Sequence record: OP172784 | Direction: 5' to 3' (one strand) | Source: Escherichia phage ECO07P1 | DNA: 64,000 nucleotides | Shown: positions 3,068 to 33,144 of the stretch, in pieces | How positions within the stretch are numbered: position 1 is the stretch's first letter | Layout of the letters: every line of letters begins with the position of its first letter | Translations under genes and position numbers: made by a program | The notes under the pieces: generated by a model | What the model was told of the DNA's origin: nothing | Database searches by the model: none | The model's input: only the letters and a program-made list of their open reading frames with translations

Positions 3068-3319
3068 ATGGAAACTTTAGTAGCAGGTTCAATTTTTATG
3101 GTTTTAGTTTCAGGCGTGTTGGCTATTATTATATACATGCTTCCATGGTTCATCGCCTTGATGCGTGGGTCAAAATCGACAGTAGGAATCTTTTTCACAT
3201 CTTTACTGTTTAACTGGTCAATTATTGGTTGGTTTATTACATTTATTTGGTCAATTGCAGGTGAAACTAAAAAGTCTGCGCAGCCAAATCAGGTAATTAT
3301 CATCAGAGAGAAGGAATGA
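3068..3319 (+). CDS. imm: Imm, superinfection immunity membrane protein (83 aa)
   Basis: 83-aa two-TM protein matching T4 Imm in length and position between 43 and 42. Confidence 0.8.
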   Translation: METLVAGSIFMVLVSGVLAIIIYMLPWFIALMRGSKSTVGIFFTSLLFNWSIIGWFITFIWSIAGETKKSAQPNQVIIIREKE

Positions 3320-3465
3320 AAAGCAAAATTATAGCAGCATTGCTTTTAATCTTGATGATTATAATAAGTATATACTATAGTGTAACGGTTCCTTGTATGA
3401 TTCCAACTATTATTTTAGGTTGGGGTTTATTACTGTTACAAGTTAAATATGAATGTATCAATTGA
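3316..3465 (+). CDS. Small hydrophobic membrane peptide (49 aa)
   Basis: ATG overlaps imm stop (ATGA); below the ORF-track size cutoff; hydrophobic throughout. Confidence 0.3.
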   Translation: MKSKIIAALLLILMIIISIYYSVTVPCMIPTIILGWGLLLLQVKYECIN

Positions 3466-28628: not shown

Positions 28629-28823
28629 ATGTTAGGTTATCAAGCACGAGTAAAAGAAGAATACGATCAATTAATGCTCAAAATTAATGCGCTGAGCAAA
28701 TTTTTAGAAAGCACAAAGTTTATAACGATTAATGAAGTTGAGCAAGAATTACTGCTTTCACAATTCATCTCAATGAAATCTTACGCAGATTGTTTAGAGA
28801 AAAGAATTGCACAGTTCAAATAA
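28629..28823 (+). CDS. Hypothetical protein (64 aa)
   Basis: ORF with AAGGA SD. Confidence 0.45.
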   Translation: MLGYQARVKEEYDQLMLKINALSKFLESTKFITINEVEQELLLSQFISMKSYADCLEKRIAQFK

Positions 28824-28827
28824 AATA

Positions 28828-28850
28828 AAGGGCTTCGGCCCTTTTGTTTT
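28828..28850 (+). terminator. Rho-independent terminator (UUCG loop plus T-run)
   Basis: aagggc-ttcg-gccctt followed by TTTTGTTTT. Confidence 0.55.
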
Positions 28851-28909
28851 AAGGGAAACTATGATTTATTGTATGAATATCAGTGATTCCGACGTAAAAG
28901 GAAAGTTTA

Positions 28910-29467
28910 ATGCAGAAAACGAATCCGGGTTTACAGAGACTATTTCAGATTCCGACATTTACCCTATCGAACAATGACTTGACTAGTGAAATGAAGGTCA
29001 AAATTGCTGATACAGCAAGATACTCTTTAAAACAAAATCCTAATCAGGATAAAGCAGAAGTCATCGAAAGATGCCGTATCGCTGTGTATGCAGAGTTTTT
29101 TGTAGCAGATTGGCTGAGCGGGTATGTTAACAAAGGCCAAGAGGATGTTAATGACCCGTATACATATGCATGGGATGTATTGGCTCATCCAAGATATTGC
29201 GGGCTTCGTGTAGAAGTCAAAACACACCAAACTGACTCACGTTGGATTTCTGTAACAACAGGATGCAGCGGAGAGTATCCATACGGTTCTGGAATAAATC
29301 TAGGGCCCATTCTGAATCATCAGGTCGCTGACTGTATAATTATATTCAACACTAAAGAAATTCATCCAGGTGTCATCCAGTACACTCCGAAGTTCATTGG
29401 TGATAGAGAAGACCTTCGTAAAGTTGTAAGAAAAAGCAACTACAACGGATGGTATCTTTCCATTTAA
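28910..29467 (+). CDS. denB: DenB endonuclease IV
   Basis: 185 aa, matching T4 DenB size and position next to rIIB. Confidence 0.8.
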   Translation: MQKTNPGLQRLFQIPTFTLSNNDLTSEMKVKIADTARYSLKQNPNQDKAEVIERCRIAVYAEFFVADWLSGYVNKGQEDVNDPYTYAWDVLAHPRYCGLRVEVKTHQTDSRWISVTTGCSGEYPYGSGINLGPILNHQVADCIIIFNTKEIHPGVIQYTPKFIGDREDLRKVVRKSNYNGWYLSI

Positions 29468-29483
29468 AAATTTTCACAAAACG

Positions 29484-29513
29484 GTTTACATACCACAAGG
29501 ACTGTGGTACTAT
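29484..29513 (+). promoter_or_regulatory. T4-type early promoter (inside the denB 3' region)
   Basis: GTTTAC 29484-29489, 18-bp spacer, TACTAT. Confidence 0.45.
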
Positions 29514-29547
29514 ACAACTATCAACTGATACGGATTTGGAGAATAAA

Positions 29548-29754
29548 ATGTTTACTACAGCTGAATTAAAACGAGCAAAAGCTAAGAAAGGGCAAGGAAA
29601 ATATAAAGCTGAATTAGTTAAAGAACTTCAGTTTGCTGAGGCTGAATTGAATTCAATGATTATTCAAAATGCTCCAGAAACTGAAATTGCTCTTAAGCGT
29701 ATTGCGAATAAGTGTCTTCGTGATGCAATCGTCGATCTTTTAGCGGATTATTGA
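29548..29754 (+). CDS. Hypothetical protein (68 aa)
   Basis: ATG at 29548 with GGAG SD; track ORF begins 29449 inside the promoter. Confidence 0.4.
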   Translation: MFTTAELKRAKAKKGQGKYKAELVKELQFAEAELNSMIIQNAPETEIALKRIANKCLRDAIVDLLADY

Positions 29755-30023
29755 GTAAAATGAAATTTAAATTTTATTACGCTAAACATAAAATAACTGA
29801 TGAGTTTGTGTCAGTTGAATATTCTAGCGATGATGAAGGTATGATTTATACTCGCTTGGGACTATCGCACTGGGAGTCTGATACGCCTTATTTTTCAACT
29901 CCTGAAGAAATTACACGCTTAGTTAATGGTCATATGAATGACCACTGGGATGTAATTCTTTCAGATAGTCTTAAAGCGGCTATTAATAGTAATGAAATGA
30001 AAATCGCTGAGATTGAACTATGA
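29751..30023 (+). CDS. Hypothetical protein (90 aa)
   Basis: ATGA coupling to previous ORF. Confidence 0.45.
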   Translation: MSKMKFKFYYAKHKITDEFVSVEYSSDDEGMIYTRLGLSHWESDTPYFSTPEEITRLVNGHMNDHWDVILSDSLKAAINSNEMKIAEIEL

Positions 30024-30106
30024 GTTCATTGTGGTGGTGTTTTGTTTGGTTAATTAGTATTCCATTGATTTGTTTAGTATTTACTTTTGTGATGAGGTTA
30101 TTATGA
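30020..30106 (+). CDS. Tiny hydrophobic peptide (28 aa)
   Basis: ATG overlapping previous stop; MSSLWWCFVWLISIPLICLVFTFVMRLL. Confidence 0.3.
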   Translation: MSSLWWCFVWLISIPLICLVFTFVMRLL

Positions 30107-30201
30107 AAATTTTGAATTCTGTACTTATTGCTTGTGCGTGGTGGGTTGCACAAGTTTCAGCGGTAGTAGTTGGTATTCACATTTATTACGAATATTTTTA
30201 A
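30103..30201 (+). CDS. Tiny hydrophobic peptide (32 aa)
   Basis: ATGA coupling; MKILNSVLIACAWWVAQVSAVVVGIHIYYEYF. Confidence 0.3.
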   Translation: MKILNSVLIACAWWVAQVSAVVVGIHIYYEYF

Positions 30202-30208
30202 AAAAGTT

Positions 30209-30238
30209 GTTTACAAGACTGTTCCTCTGTGGTATTAT
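30209..30238 (+). promoter_or_regulatory. T4-type early promoter
   Basis: GTTTAC 30209-30214, 18-bp spacer, TATTAT. Confidence 0.45.
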
Positions 30239-30266
30239 TACCCTATCAACTACGGAGGAACAGAAA

Positions 30267-30380
30267 ATGAAAAAGATTGTTAAAGCTATATGGAATGTAG
30301 TTATAATATTAGTAGTTTTGAGTATATTCTCAATCGTTTTAATGATTGATGTATTAAACGCTTACTTTGGATTTATGTGA
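30267..30380 (+). CDS. Tiny single-TM peptide (37 aa)
   Basis: ATG at 30267 with GGAGG SD; MKKIVKAIWNVVIILVVLSIFSIVLMIDVLNAYFGFM. Confidence 0.35.
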   Translation: MKKIVKAIWNVVIILVVLSIFSIVLMIDVLNAYFGFM

Positions 30381-30387
30381 GGAAAAT

Positions 30388-30585
30388 ATGAAGCGTAAAC
30401 GCAGTGCTTTTACATTTATTGAATGGTTTTTCGATAATATTTTTCCAGCTTTATTCATTTTCATGCTGATTTTTGCCTTAGGTTCAGTTGTAGTTGGAAT
30501 CTATTTGATGGCAGTTGTCGGAATGGATATTCACCAAAATGGCTTAAAATCTGTGGTTGAAACAATTTGGAATGGTGTAAAATAA
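30388..30585 (+). CDS. Small membrane protein (65 aa)
   Basis: ATG at 30388 with GAGGA SD; hydrophobic core FPALFIFMLIFALGSVVVGIYLMAVVG. Confidence 0.4.
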   Translation: MKRKRSAFTFIEWFFDNIFPALFIFMLIFALGSVVVGIYLMAVVGMDIHQNGLKSVVETIWNGVK

Positions 30586-30693
30586 TGAATTTACTAAGCA
30601 TTTGGTTTTATATTCTTATGTTTTACATTGGTGCAAATTTCCCATATTGGATGGGATGGTCAACAACTGCATTTGGATTTTATACTCCTTGAG
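30586..30693 (+). CDS. Tiny hydrophobic peptide (35 aa)
   Basis: ATG at 30586; MNLLSIWFYILMFYIGANFPYWMGW. Confidence 0.3.
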
Positions 30694-30700
30694 GTGAATT

Positions 30701-30916
30701 ATGAAAATCTTTAAAGATGTAAAAGTTGGTGAAATTTTTTGCTTAGATAATGGTGATCAGTTAATTCGTATTTCGCCTCTTAAAAGCACTAGCGAGAAAA
30801 TGACAGTTAACGCTACTTTAGCAAATAACAGCAATGAACGTTTCTGTATTGAAAATGATACTGAAACTTATACTGTAGAAGAGTTCTGGGAATTAAGCGT
30901 CGACTGCGATGATTAA
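30701..30916 (+). CDS. Hypothetical acidic protein (71 aa)
   Basis: ORF with GAGG SD. Confidence 0.4.
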   Translation: MKIFKDVKVGEIFCLDNGDQLIRISPLKSTSEKMTVNATLANNSNERFCIENDTETYTVEEFWELSVDCDD

Positions 30917-30976
30917 TTTAATGGCCGTGTGTATTCATGCGGCCTTGGAGTAGAAAATAATTTAGAGGAAATTAAT

Positions 30977-31432
30977 ATGAAATACATGACTGTTACTGAT
31001 CTGAATAATGCAGGCGCTACTGTTATTGGTACAATCAAGGGCGGTGAATGGGTTTTTGGAACTCCGCATAAAGACATTTTGTCTAACCCTGGATTTTACT
31101 TTTTAGTGAGCAAATTTGGTGGTCCATTTGATAGTCCGTGTGTATCTGCACGATTTTGTGTAGGTAATCAGCGTTCTAAGCAAGGATTCAGTGCAGTTCT
31201 AAGTCATATTCGTCAGCGTCGGTCTCAGCTTGCACGTACTATTGCAAATAACAATGTTCCATACGCGGTATTTTATCTACCTGCTTCTAAGATGAAACCT
31301 CTGACGACGGGATTTGGAAAAGGTCAGTTAGCTTTAGCGTTTACCCGTAATCATCGTTCTGAGTATCAAACACTTGAAGAAATGAATCGTATGTTGGCTG
31401 ATAACTTTAAATTTGTTTTGCAGGCGTATTAA
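30977..31432 (+). CDS. ndd: Ndd, nucleoid disruption protein (151 aa)
   Basis: ATG at 30977 gives 151 aa matching remembered T4 Ndd ([18 protein letters not shown]...). Confidence 0.85.
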
Positions 31433-31512
31433 TGAGTAATTTCCATAACGAACACGTGATGCAGTTCTATCGTAACAATCTTAAAACTAAAGGCGTCTTC
31501 GGACGCCAGTGA
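31432..31512 (+). CDS. stp: Stp, 26-aa suppressor-of-pnk peptide
   Basis: 26-aa ORF overlapping ndd stop (TAATG); size and position match T4 Stp; CUUCGG hairpin at its 3' end. Confidence 0.6.
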
Positions 31513-31519
31513 GGAAAAT

Positions 31520-31678
31520 ATGAATATTGCAAAATTATTAGGAGTTATTTCATTTATTTGTTGGATAGTAGCATGTGTTTTAACTATCTATATTGATGCC
31601 AGCAGCGTGTTTTCACAAGCTTTAGCTCAGGGTATGTGTGCATATTTAACATTTGTGTTGTTATCTACTAATGATTAA
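31520..31678 (+). CDS. ac: Ac-like small membrane protein (52 aa)
   Basis: GAGGA SD; hydrophobic; position between stp and 52 as T4 ac. Confidence 0.5.
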   Translation: MNIAKLLGVISFICWIVACVLTIYIDASSVFSQALAQGMCAYLTFVLLSTND

Positions 31679-31815
31679 GAAAATCTTGGGCTACTCAGTA
31701 GCCCTTGCTACTTTATTGGTAGCACTATATTATGGAGTAATGTTCGGATTAATTCAAGTCGTGCTTTTCATTTCTGATGTTATTATGGCACTACATTCAC
31801 TAGTATGGTAAATTT

Positions 31816-33144
31816 ATGCAACTGAATAATCGCGATTTAAAAAGTATCATTGATAATGAAGCATTGGCTTATGCTATGTACACGGTTGAAAATCGTGCTA
31901 TCCCAAATATGATTGATGGATTTAAGCCAGTTCAACGATTTGTTATTGCTCGAGCTCTTGATTTGGCACGGGGAAATAAAGATAAGTTTCACAAACTCGC
32001 TTCTATTGCAGGTGGTGTAGCTGACCTTGGATATCATCATGGTGAAAACTCTGCGCAAGACGCGGGGGCTTTGATGGCTAATACTTGGAATAATAACTTT
32101 CCTTTGTTAGATGGTCAAGGAAACTTTGGTTCTCGTACTGTTCAAAAAGCAGCGGCAAGTCGTTATATTTTTGCTCGTGTAAGTAAAAATTTCTATAACG
32201 TATATAAAGATACTGAATATGCTCCGGTACATCAAGATAAAGAACACATTCCGCCTGCTTTTTATTTGCCTATTATTCCTACCGTTCTTCTTAATGGTGT
32301 TTCCGGTATTGCAACTGGTTATGCAACTTACATTCTTCCTCATAGCGTTTCTTCTGTCAAGAAAGCTGTATTACAAGCTCTTCAAGGAAAGAAAGTAACT
32401 AAACCGAAGGTAGAATTCCCAGAATTTCGTGGTGAAGTCGTTGAAATTGACGGTCAATATGAAATTCGTGGAACGTACAAGTTTACTTCACGAACTCAAA
32501 TGAATATCACTGAGATTCCGTATAAGTATGATCGTGAAACTTATGTGAGTAAAATCTTAGACCCGCTTGAAGATAAAGGCTTCATTACGTGGGATGATGC
32601 TTGTGGTGAGCATGGTTTTGGATTTAAAATTAAATTCCGCAAAGAATACTCTTTGAGCGATAACGAAGAAGAACGCCATGCAAAAATCATGAAAGACTTC
32701 GGGTTGATTGAGCGTCGTTCCCAGAATATTACCGTTATTAATGAGAAAGGAAAACTACAAGTTTACGATAACGTAGTTGATTTAATTAAAGACTTCGTTG
32801 AAGTTCGTAAAACTTATGTCCAAAAACGAATTGATAACAAAATCAAAGAAACTGAATCAGCATTTCGTTTAGCCTTTGCCAAGGCGCATTTCATTAAGAA
32901 AGTAATTTCAGGTGAAATTGTTGTACAAGATAAAACTCGCAAAGAACTGACCGAAGAACTTTCTAAAATTGATATGTATTCTTCTTATGTTGATAAACTA
33001 GTTGGAATGAACATTTTTCATATGACTTCCGACGAAGCAAAGAAACTTGCTGAAGAAGCTAAAGCCAAAAAAGAAGAAAACGAATATTGGAAAACTACTG
33101 ATGTAGTTACAGAATACACCAAAGATTTAGAGGAAATCAAATGA
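31816..33144 (+). CDS. 52: Topoisomerase II medium subunit gp52 (GyrA-like)
   Basis: 442 aa, matches T4 gp52. Confidence 0.95.
   Translation: MQLNNRDLKSIIDNEALAYAMYTVENRAIPNMIDGFKPVQRFVIARALDLARGNKDKFHKLASIAGGVADLGYHHGENSAQDAGALMANTWNNNFPLLDGQGNFGSRTVQKAAASRYIFARVSKNFYNVYKDTEYAPVHQDKEHIPPAFYLPIIPTVLLNGVSGIATGYATYILPHSVSSVKKAVLQALQGKKVTKPKVEFPEFRGEVVEIDGQYEIRGTYKFTSRTQMNITEIPYKYDRETYVSKILDPLEDKGFITWDDACGEHGFGFKIKFRKEYSLSDNEEERHAKIMKDFGLIERRSQNITVINEKGKLQVYDNVVDLIKDFVEVRKTYVQKRIDNKIKETESAFRLAFAKAHFIKKVISGEIVVQDKTRKELTEELSKIDMYSSYVDKLVGMNIFHMTSDEAKKLAEEAKAKKEENEYWKTTDVVTEYTKDLEEIK

Follow-up and report, generated by a model that had tools for sequence, protein, structure and literature searches.

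In bacteriophage T4, the interval between denB and ndd carries the long-annotated, function-less genes ndd.6, ndd.5, ndd.4, ndd.2a, and ndd.2, whose products stand in databases as ‘Uncharacterized 3.4/3.7/4.4/5.0 kDa protein in ndd-denB intergenic region’. Their transcripts are classed as ‘early’ (PMC9697503 Table S2). The proteins of the ndd.6–ndd.2 orthologs are all listed as not detected in a T4 proteome study, a result that is to be expected because the peptides are tiny and hydrophobic and that still counts as absence; ndd.1 is early at both the RNA and the protein level (PMC9697503). By CRISPRi-ART, the T4 orthologs were scored ‘Not Fit’, knock-down being without fitness cost on the laboratory host. 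The sole phenotype mapped to the region comes from the T4 deletion saDelta9, which is viable with about 50% yield and loses phage-induced phospholipid/phosphatidylglycerol synthesis (PMC6071114). This deletion of 3.4 kb also removes seven other genes, including denB, ndd, ndd.1, stp, ac, and 52.1, and denB could account for the phenotype, because mutants lacking dCTPase, endonuclease IV, and Alc are also without stimulation (PMC6071114). Our literature search found no mention of ndd.2a or DUF7248 and no paper giving ndd.1–ndd.6 a function, and a preprint describing an anti-defense screen makes no mention of these genes.

The window analyzed here is a 64,000-nucleotide stretch of Escherichia phage ECO07P1 (OP172784), which is a Tequatrovirus of the T4 type. 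The array of five tiny ORFs (O1–O5), its signals, and its neighbors are laid out as follows:

29485-29513, + strand: T4-early-type sigma-70 promoter (promoter scan), TTTACA, 17 nt, TG-extended TACTAT; upstream of a 68-aa ORF
29760-30023, + strand: 87-aa soluble ORF, phrog_2390; upstream neighbor and context for the translation of O1, outside the five
30020-30106, + strand: O1, 28 aa, MSSLWWCFVWLISIPLICLVFTFVMRLL; T4 ndd.6 ortholog, one predicted hydrophobic helix
30103-30201, + strand: O2, 32 aa; T4 ndd.5 ortholog, one predicted hydrophobic helix
30210-30238, + strand: T4-early-type promoter (promoter scan), TTTACA, 17 nt, TG-extended TATTAT; 10/12 matches
30267-30380, + strand: O3, 37 aa; T4 ndd.4 ortholog, MKK..K basic N-terminus, one predicted transmembrane helix
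30388-30585, + strand: O4, 65 aa; full-length Ndd.2a, Pfam DUF7248
30585-30692, + strand: O5, 35 aa; T4 ndd.2 ortholog
30701-30916, + strand: ndd.1 ortholog, 71 aa, acidic, soluble (GRAVY -0.42); phrog_2183, E 2.7e-38

All five ORFs that the sequence-only reading had described (28, 32, 37, 65, and 35 aa) were found at 30020-30692 on the + strand, and four of the five are shorter than 60 aa, in line with its remark that four fall below the size cutoff of the ORF track. Its placement of the array between denB and ndd holds for the wider denB–ndd interval but not for the immediate flanks, which are the 87-aa ORF and, as the next gene downstream of O5 and outside the five, the ndd.1 ortholog. Between denB and O1, this phage has two ORFs (68 and 87 aa) that are missing from T4. 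The source record annotates O2, O3, and O4; O1 and O5 are absent from its annotation.

On sequence comparison, the five ORFs are the orthologs of T4 ndd.6, ndd.5, ndd.4, ndd.2a, and ndd.2, so that the array was already known and annotated, which the sequence-only reading had not recognized. DNA identity to the T4 block (NC_000866 T4p275-T4p270) is about 96% in the alignment, and the order, the orientation relative to denB and ndd, the promoter preceding ndd.4, and the overlaps are all alike. The O2 peptide is identical to T4 Ndd.5, and O1 shares 24 of its 28 residues with T4 Ndd.6. Each ORF matches its own PHROG family: O1 phrog_8851 (positions 1–28 of 28, E 4.8e-16), O2 phrog_5011 (positions 1–32 of 32, E 3.6e-26), O3 phrog_3098 (positions 1–37 of 37, E 4.2e-20), O4 phrog_2401 (E 3.4e-30), and O5 phrog_4135 (residues 1–35 on profile positions 7–41 of 41, E 2.8e-23). 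O4 also matches Pfam DUF7248 (PF23906) with 71.9 bits, the gathering threshold being 27 bits, and its residues 6–63 align to model positions 4–57 of 58; predicted N-terminal transmembrane helix and conserved GLKSVVExIWNG tail are common to O4 and the family. As DUF7248 is itself function-less, membership gives no mechanism for O4. In newer Pfam releases, the ndd.4 family to which O3 belongs is PF26889 (Phage_T4_Y16N), and precomputed matches to it exist for the Gaprivervirus O3 homolog and for an O3::O4 fusion of phage Sf25. Our own Pfam scan, run at E up to 0.1 on a release that apparently lacks PF26889, returned nothing for O1, O2, O3, and O5 and only DUF families for O4, and the NCBIfam scan gave nothing significant (the best E-values, 0.28 and 0.41, fell well short of the curated cut-offs). 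Across the Pfam, NCBIfam, and PHROG scans, no toxin, holin, exclusion, or other characterized family was found among O1–O5. An Rfam scan of 28800-31900 yielded nothing credible, its one sub-threshold match (TarB, E 0.31) lying outside the array.

The alignment also bears on the T4 annotation. T4 “ndd.3” is a phantom ORF that owes its existence to a 1-bp error in the reference; the true Ndd.2a is 65 aa long. Through a 1-bp deletion, the T4 reference breaks the O4 counterpart in two, an out-of-frame ndd.3 of 26 aa and an ndd.2a of 40 aa. Among the T4 genome records listed, X75802, AF158101, and NC_000866 alone have this deletion, and five others lack it. T4 ndd.4 is annotated at 42 aa, compared with 37 aa for O3; the difference comes from an additional upstream ATG that in T4 lies within the GGAGGA Shine-Dalgarno sequence. 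The annotation would gain from retiring T4 “ndd.3”, extending Ndd.2a to 65 aa, shifting the T4 ndd.4 start to give 37 aa, and adding O1 and O5 to the records that omit them, as well as from no longer using “outer membrane protein”, “periplasmic protein”, and “naphthalene 1,2-dioxygenase” as labels.

The third ORF had been credited with its own early promoter, and we located it at 30210-30238, within the 65 nt that separate O2 from O3 and immediately before O3; it is the best-scoring promoter-like site of the region. It is also conserved in T4, and the sole DNA-level match to Gaprivervirus came from here. The transcript carrying O1 and O2 likely starts at the promoter at 29485-29513, which the alignment shows to be kept in T4, there directly upstream of ndd.6. 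Both the promoters found in the window and the ‘early’ class of the T4 transcripts agree with the early expression that had been proposed. The reported ATGA linkage is present between the 87-aa ORF and O1 (30020-30023) and between O1 and O2 (30103-30106), the O4/O5 junction is TAATG with a one-base overlap at 30585, and Shine-Dalgarno sequences stand 4–7 nt before the ATG of O2 (GAGG), O3 (GGAGGA), and O4 (GAGGA). Other T4-like loci, Gaprivervirus among them, keep the 4-nt overlap of the 87-aa ORF with O1, and in T4, where the 87-aa ORF has been deleted down to the remnant MKIAEIEL and its stop codon, the ATGA overlap with ndd.6 is retained.

The peptides are indeed hydrophobic, with GRAVY values of 0.72–1.94 and one 19-residue hydrophobic window in each of O1–O5. 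The best 19-residue Kyte-Doolittle window reaches 2.2–3.1 in O1–O4 and is weaker in O5 (1.43), which has zero charged residues and is 34% aromatic. The genome is AT-rich, and 7–10% of random 25–70-aa ORFs in the window are equally hydrophobic; hydrophobicity alone is therefore not beyond chance, and we rejected it as coding evidence. This figure would suit a non-functional origin, in which T-rich DNA yielded the ORFs by chance or it is the act of translating them, rather than the peptide, that counts, through spacing or coupling for downstream genes. The same reading could draw on the proteome study, in which no T4 protein was detected, and on the junctions, given that the O1 start overlaps the stop codon of the preceding ORF in every case and that the 8-codon remnant in T4 keeps the coupling. 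Conservation and purifying selection at the codon level do go beyond chance, and it is on these that the case against a non-functional origin is built.

Within the genus, we compared 22 Tequatrovirus sequences, and the frames are intact in 17–22 of them. O2 and O5 are intact in 22 of 22 (pN/pS 0.11 and 0.12, respectively), with 10 of the 13 variable sites of O2 falling at codon position 3. The O1 frame is intact in 21 of 22 and has a pN/pS of 0.18, as against 0.94 and 4.0 in its off-frames. O4, with a pN/pS of 0.12, is disrupted in five of the 22 sequences, so its loss is tolerated. O3 is intact in 21 of 22, the exception being its in-frame fusion to O4 in phage Sf25, and its within-genus pN/pS of 0.93 is uninformative because it comes from only six variable sites. 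The O1, O2, O4, and O5 peptides are under clear purifying selection within the genus, with pN/pS of 0.11–0.18 in frame and about 1–4 off frame, which speaks against chance ORFs and against a role for translation alone.

Beyond the genus, a search with an Ndd alignment recovered 40 loci and a search with the 65-aa protein (O4) alone recovered five; the cross-genus sample comprised 35 non-Tequatrovirus loci, in which HMM matches upstream of ndd were counted. Homologs of O1, O3, O4, and O5 recur at the same denB–ndd position in other T4-like genera (15/35, 26/35, 13/35, and 9/35 loci, respectively), O3 being the most widespread of the five. O2 had no homolog in the 35 loci and is found in Tequatrovirus only. 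Loci with homologs include phages of Klebsiella, Enterobacter, and Serratia; the O5 homologs include those of Klebsiella phage Marfa and Enterobacter phage CIP9, and in Winklervirus, Karamvirus, and Gaprivervirus the denB–ndd interval holds an O4 homolog. The O4 family comprises about 100 clusters; where a source is named, it is mostly a T4-like phage. Of the 13 non-Tequatrovirus loci with O4, 12 also have O3, and the O3–O4 spacing is 7–10 nt in four genera. As a side observation, ndd.4 followed by a DUF7248 gene is a recurring gene pair.

Because synonymous sites are saturated across genera (pS 0.25–1.0), pN/pS is not decisive at this distance, and we relied on syntenic profile matches instead. 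Peptide motifs are preserved where DNA divergence exceeds blastn detection: S..WC..W...IP is invariant in O1, an Asp after the helix in O3, G52, K54, W61, and G63 in O4, and G.N..YW.G in O5. In each of these four peptides, a few invariant polar or aromatic residues are set within an otherwise variable hydrophobic helix. Such survival of motifs and invariant residues is a second argument against a non-functional origin, which is already largely refuted and which we consider highly improbable. Purifying selection within the genus and same-position conservation across genera uphold the view that these are real genes for small peptides of membrane type. Rather than frameshifts without conservation at the peptide level, we found strongly conserved peptides and disruptions limited to O4 and, once, O1, in few isolates or records.

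Membrane insertion and topology of O1–O5 are predicted from composition only. O2, O3, and O4 have basic N-termini; the orientation of O5 and O1 is unpredictable because O5 is without a charged residue and O1 has only one. O4 starts with a basic MKRKRS N-terminus, followed by a short amphipathic helix, a predicted transmembrane helix, and a conserved C-terminal helix, NGLKSVVExIWNG. Its AlphaFold2 model (pLDDT 90) has helices at residues 5–17, 19–51, and 53–62, the long one being flanked by short ones.

The array consists of five separate, real genes (the T4 ndd.6–ndd.2 orthologs). With moderate confidence, we propose that they encode single-pass microproteins of the inner membrane and that these modulate the host envelope in an accessory role. 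Right after infection, the host sigma-70 RNA polymerase would transcribe the genes, starting at the two early promoters, and translation would begin at Shine-Dalgarno sequences of their own or through stop-start coupling. Each peptide would then insert into the host inner membrane as a single helix, with the basic N-terminus of O2, O3, and O4 on the cytoplasmic side and the NGLKSVVExIWNG helix of O4 at the periplasmic face. By binding host inner-membrane proteins helix-to-helix, like AcrZ, MgrB, and MgtS, the peptides would most likely tune envelope physiology in some hosts or conditions, and O3 and O4 would probably act as a pair. One concrete candidate phenotype is the phage-induced phosphatidylglycerol/phospholipid boost that is lost in T4 saDelta9. 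Of the roles that the sequence-only reading had put forward as candidates (superinfection exclusion, membrane stress modulation, and anti-defense), we found evidence for none.

It is also conceivable, although we regard it as improbable, that ndd.4 and full-length Ndd.2a (DUF7248) together make up a module of two inner-membrane peptides, conserved in T4-like phages and acting on a conserved host inner-membrane enzyme or transporter, and that the other peptides are lineage-specific add-ons. If true, such a module could, for example, be the long-sought determinant of the T4-induced phosphatidylglycerol rise that saDelta9 lacks, or could block a widespread membrane-acting defense.

The size and composition of the 28–37-aa peptides, each with one predicted helix, resemble those of type I toxins, and by eye O1 loosely resembles the Hok N-terminus (SSLxWC). 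The peptides might act as type I toxins (Hok, TisB) or holins do, damaging or depolarizing the host membrane and thereby aiding early host shutdown. However, Pfam gives no Hok/Gef or holin match at E up to 0.1, and knock-down leaves phage fitness unchanged. Moreover, the conserved residues occupy specific polar and aromatic positions, and the O4 motif is predicted to lie outside the membrane, features that fit specific binding better than generic damage, and we judge a toxin-like action to be quite improbable.

A role in counter-defense, in which at least one peptide neutralizes a membrane-acting abortive-infection or prophage exclusion system and matters only in hosts with that system, is unlikely. 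RIIA and RIIB act against RexAB exclusion, and the early rIIB-denB-ndd-stp-ac block holds host-takeover and defense-related genes. The patchy presence and absence of the peptides among related phages is typical of accessory or counter-defense genes, O4 has been lost in long-passaged laboratory stocks, e.g., T2, and the lack of a fitness cost by CRISPRi-ART was seen on a laboratory host. On the other hand, O1–O5 are without similarity to known anti-defense proteins in PHROG and Pfam, and our search found no literature report of such a role. The presence of O3 in 26 of the 35 loci, over Escherichia, Klebsiella, Enterobacter, and Serratia hosts, is easier to reconcile with a general host target than with a single sporadic defense system.

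Early expression and a probable inner-membrane location would suit superinfection exclusion, whereby the peptides alter the envelope and block DNA injection by later T-even phages, like T4 Imm and Sp. In established T4 genetics, however, imm and sp themselves explain this exclusion. O1–O5 have no PHROG or Pfam match to Imm or Sp, the scans having given only ndd.x families, and a review reports no exclusion defect for deletions of the region (PMC6071114), which makes exclusion very unlikely.

From a biological perspective, the accessory envelope-modulator reading concerns a region that carries an unexplained phenotype, the control of host phospholipid synthesis, and a class of small membrane proteins that is routinely missed by proteomics and gene callers. 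Selection, breadth, and the pairing of ndd.4 with DUF7248 narrow the experiments needed on T4 early ORFs that have been function-less for decades.

Finally, we compared the array with known proteins. Over about 15 residues at its C-terminal end (LKSVVETIWNGVK), O4 scores against 5–10 tandem xxVWNGIKSxx units of proteins of 820–976 aa that resemble phage tape measures. We rejected homology to these Trp repeats, as O4 has one short amphipathic unit and no shared architecture; the similarity is probably convergence on a common helical motif. The bacterial regulatory microproteins AcrZ, MgrB, MgtS, SgrT, KdpF, and CydX of the inner membrane are shorter than 70 aa, have one transmembrane helix, and act by binding a larger membrane protein. 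O1–O5 have no sequence relationship to them, are phage-encoded and early, and appear alike in kind only, their membrane role being predicted here from sequence alone. Within the same early block, the small T4 membrane proteins Ac (51–52 aa), gp52.1 (46 aa), and motA.1 (49 aa) belong to families that differ from those of O1–O5, and Ac has an acridine sensitivity/resistance phenotype whereas ndd.2–ndd.6 have none; all three share with O1–O5 their direction, their size class, and their hydrophobic character.

The five small open reading frames (ORFs), O1 to O5, lie in the gene order denB, 68-aa ORF, 87-aa ORF, O1-O5, ndd.1, ndd, stp, ac, 52.1, and gene 52. Their positions, lengths, and sequences were all as the sequence-only reading had given them:

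Positions of the five small ORFs in the window
30020-30106, + strand, O1, 28 aa
30103-30201, + strand, O2, 32 aa
30267-30380, + strand, O3, 37 aa
30388-30585, + strand, O4, 65 aa
30585-30692, + strand, O5, 35 aa

ATGA overlaps of the kind previously described are present at the 87-aa ORF/O1 and O1/O2 junctions, O4 and O5 share one base (TAATG), and good Shine-Dalgarno sequences precede O2, O3, and O4. The early promoter attributed to the third ORF was found as a T4-early-type sequence (TTTACA, 17 nt, TG-extended TATTAT) in the 65-nt gap before O3, and a second promoter of this type lies upstream of the 68-aa ORF. Each peptide has a single hydrophobic segment, and O5 has no charged residues and is 34% aromatic. 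All five are indeed hydrophobic, as had been claimed, but so, to an equal degree, are 7-10% of random ORFs of 25-70 aa in this AT-rich window, and composition alone therefore proves nothing.

Over the surrounding 2.1 kb, identity is 100% to Escherichia phage ECO07P3 (OP172786, Tequatrovirus) and 94-98% to several hundred T4-like phages. The plus strand of the window corresponds to the minus strand of T4, whose reference annotation lists ndd.6 (28 aa), ndd.5 (32), ndd.4 (42), ndd.3 (26), ndd.2a (40), and ndd.2 (36) between denB and ndd.1. Because the two blocks are colinear and ~96% identical in pairwise alignment, O1-O5 are the orthologues of ndd.6, ndd.5, ndd.4, ndd.3 plus ndd.2a, and ndd.2, respectively. 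Each gave a full-length match to a PHROG family of its own (E 5e-16 to 3e-30), and O4 scored 71.9 bits against Pfam DUF7248 (threshold 27). Their public database names take the form 'Uncharacterized 3.4/3.7/4.4/5.0 kDa protein in ndd-denB intergenic region'. These are T4-family genes of unknown function that were annotated before, and hence not a discovery. The value of the finding lies in a better-defined experimental target, namely the ndd.4 and DUF7248 pair and a lipid phenotype, and in a set of annotation corrections.

In codon 2-3 of the 65-aa gene, one G is missing from the T4 reference (ATGAAGCGT reads ATGAACGT), a 1-bp deletion that splits the gene into an out-of-frame "ndd.3" of 26 aa and an "ndd.2a" of 40 aa (T4 NC_000866 166432-166628, locus L004, against window 30388-30585). 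Among the matches listed, a 100-mer bearing the deletion was 100% identical only to X75802, AF158101, and NC_000866; a 101-base alignment, with the extra base present, was obtained for T4T, KJ477684, KJ477685, OZ209023, OZ209057, and other listed Tequatrovirus records. The ORF is intact in five T4 genome records besides the deletion-bearing ones, and ndd.3 is a singleton in PHROGs. As the deletion is confined to those three records among the ones listed and the ORF is intact in the others, T4 ndd.3 is, from this record comparison, a phantom ORF, and ndd.3 and ndd.2a form one 65-aa gene. The ATG from which the 42-aa T4 ndd.4 is annotated lies inside the GGAGGA Shine-Dalgarno sequence and is ACG in other phages; the conserved product has 37 aa. 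T4 also lacks the 68-aa and 87-aa ORFs (window 29548-30023 in the alignment), through a deletion after which the final 7 codons of the 87-aa ORF directly follow the early promoter, Shine-Dalgarno sequence, and ATG of the 68-aa ORF. The resulting 8-codon remnant, MKIAEIEL*, retains the ATGA overlap with ndd.6, and the 87-aa ORF/O1 overlap is kept across genera, which suggests that O1 depends on translational coupling.

Other annotations also need attention. That of OP172786 omits O1 (ndd.6), O5 (ndd.2), stp (26 aa, 31432-31512), and 52.1 (46 aa), all intact here. In RefSeq/GenBank records of relatives, 'naphthalene 1,2-dioxygenase' is a widespread label for the 32-37-aa ndd.5, ndd.4, and ndd.2 (e.g. 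RB27_265, locus L015 1247-1360); ndd.6 and ndd.5 bear the label 'outer membrane protein', and ndd.2a bears 'periplasmic protein'. These three labels have no support and look like propagated annotation errors.

When the block was aligned from 22 Tequatrovirus sequences, the O2 and O5 frames were intact in all 22, and those of O1 (one 2-nt insertion near the 3' end) and O3 (an in-frame O3::O4 fusion in Sf25) in 21 each; O4, intact in 17/22, is the most often damaged of the five. Substitutions accumulate at third codon positions, with in-frame pN/pS values of 0.18 (O1), 0.11 (O2), 0.12 (O4), and 0.12 (O5), against ~1-4 for the same DNA read off-frame. The O3 value of 0.93 comes from just six variable sites and is for that reason uninformative. 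The alternative that O1-O5 are non-functional ORFs is essentially excluded.

Across genera, profiles of each peptide were searched against every plus-strand ORF of 40 T4-like loci around ndd from IMG/VR, 35 of them not Tequatrovirus. The denB/ndd order was identical in 40/40 loci. Homologues were found in 26 (O3), 15 (O1), 13 (O4), and 9 (O5) of the 35 non-Tequatrovirus loci, and the O2 profile matched in none of them. Every match lay between denB and ndd, nearly always with O1 first, then O3, O4, and O5. Three loci were identified, as Klebsiella phage Marfa, Enterobacter phage CIP9, and Klebsiella JY1/KP1-like phages; contexts from Serratia (Winklervirus-type), Enterobacter (Karamvirus-type), and Gaprivervirus were observed separately. 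The fixed residues are S..WC..W...IP in O1, G.N..YW.G in O5, and G52, K54, W61, and G63 within the GLKSVVExIWNG tail of O4; O3 keeps a basic N-terminus and, following the helix, a single invariant Asp. No Rfam family matched in the region. Since specific residues are fixed at distances where blastn finds nearly no matches, selection acts on the peptides and not on DNA or RNA.

The damage to O4 takes several forms. In T2 (AP018813; locus L018 about 1380-1598), its Shine-Dalgarno sequence is weakened from GAGGA to GATGA, a TCA codon has become the nonsense codon TAA, and an Ala in the helix is replaced by Glu; this copy, from a long-passaged laboratory stock, looks like a pseudogene. The homopolymer indels in vB_EcoM_FT and ESh34 (an UNVERIFIED record) may be sequencing errors. 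In two natural in-frame fusions, the C-terminal tail of Ndd.2a (O4) is joined to the N-terminal helix of ndd.4 (O3) in Shigella phage Sf25 (P0007, locus L013 1248-1436) and to that of ndd.5 (O2) in a 151,790-bp T4 record (P0008), and a 'helix plus tail' product therefore tends to survive deletions inside the array. Residues 50-65 of O4 (window about 30535-30582), the DUF7248 C-terminal motif LKSVVETIWNGVK, score against 5-10 tandem xxVWNGIKSxx units in phage tape-measure-like proteins of 820-976 aa (P0012, P0016, P0020, P0025), probably a convergent amphipathic helix motif.

In T4, transcripts of ndd.2, ndd.2a, ndd.3, ndd.4, ndd.5, and ndd.6 are classed as early and the ndd.2-ndd.6 proteins were not detected; for ndd and ndd.1, RNA and protein are both early (Wolfram-Schauerte et al. 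2022, Table S2, PMC9697503). Knock-down of ndd.1-ndd.6 and denB was scored "Not Fit", i.e. no fitness defect (CRISPRi-ART supplement, PMC11879866). O1-O5 are shown to be real genes, each conserved in its own right, transcribed early, and non-essential, that encode peptides of 28-65 aa with one hydrophobic helix each. Kutter et al. (2018, PMC6071114) state the ndd.1-ndd.6 products as unknown, and no function was assigned elsewhere in the literature searched. With saDelta9, a deletion from 52.1 through denB, the phage is viable at about half the normal yield, and the T4-induced stimulation of phospholipid synthesis, notably of phosphatidylglycerol, is abolished; a mutant without endonuclease IV (plus dCTPase and Alc) likewise lacks this stimulation (PMC6071114). 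Besides the five ORFs, denB, ndd, ndd.1, stp, ac, and 52.1 are lost in saDelta9. The lipid-synthesis effect is the sole phenotype mapped nearby and a reasonable first test for the peptides. That they counter host defences is unlikely, and a part in superinfection exclusion is very improbable.

Small membrane peptides seem to recur in this early region, where we also noted four further hydrophobic ORFs:

Other small hydrophobic ORFs in the window
3316-3465, + strand, 49 aa (MKSKIIAALLLILMIIISIYY...)
31520-31678, + strand, ac, 52 aa
31671-31811, + strand, 52.1, 46 aa
33141-33290, + strand, 49 aa, probably motA.1, overlapping the end of gene 52

A G+C-rich hairpin at 30923-30944, between ndd.1 and ndd (9-bp stem GGCCGUGUG/CAUGCGGCC; 76-nt context -16.8 kcal/mol, z = -2.1), has no T-run after it and could serve in RNA processing or RNA stability, or act as a weak terminator. 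Just upstream of denB, a perfect palindromic hairpin (28827-28844, AAAGGGCTTCGGCCCTTT) has T-runs on both strands and resembles a bidirectional intrinsic terminator.

Each peptide would insert into the inner membrane, and the basic N-termini of O2, O3, and O4 would face the cytoplasm. In the high-confidence O4 model (pLDDT 90), residues 5-17 form a short amphipathic helix; a kink at Pro20 and a long helix (19-51) follow, and the conserved motif sits in a short C-terminal helix (53-62). O3 and O4 are a probable pair, given their spacing of 7-10 nt in four genera and the presence of O3 in 12 of the 13 non-Tequatrovirus loci with O4. Generic membrane damage fits the conservation pattern less well than docking, and a toxin-like action of the peptides is quite unlikely. 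A variable helix core with a few fixed polar or aromatic positions fits docking onto a larger membrane protein, and we propose that the phage peptides resemble in this the bacterial regulatory microproteins, which dock onto larger membrane proteins.
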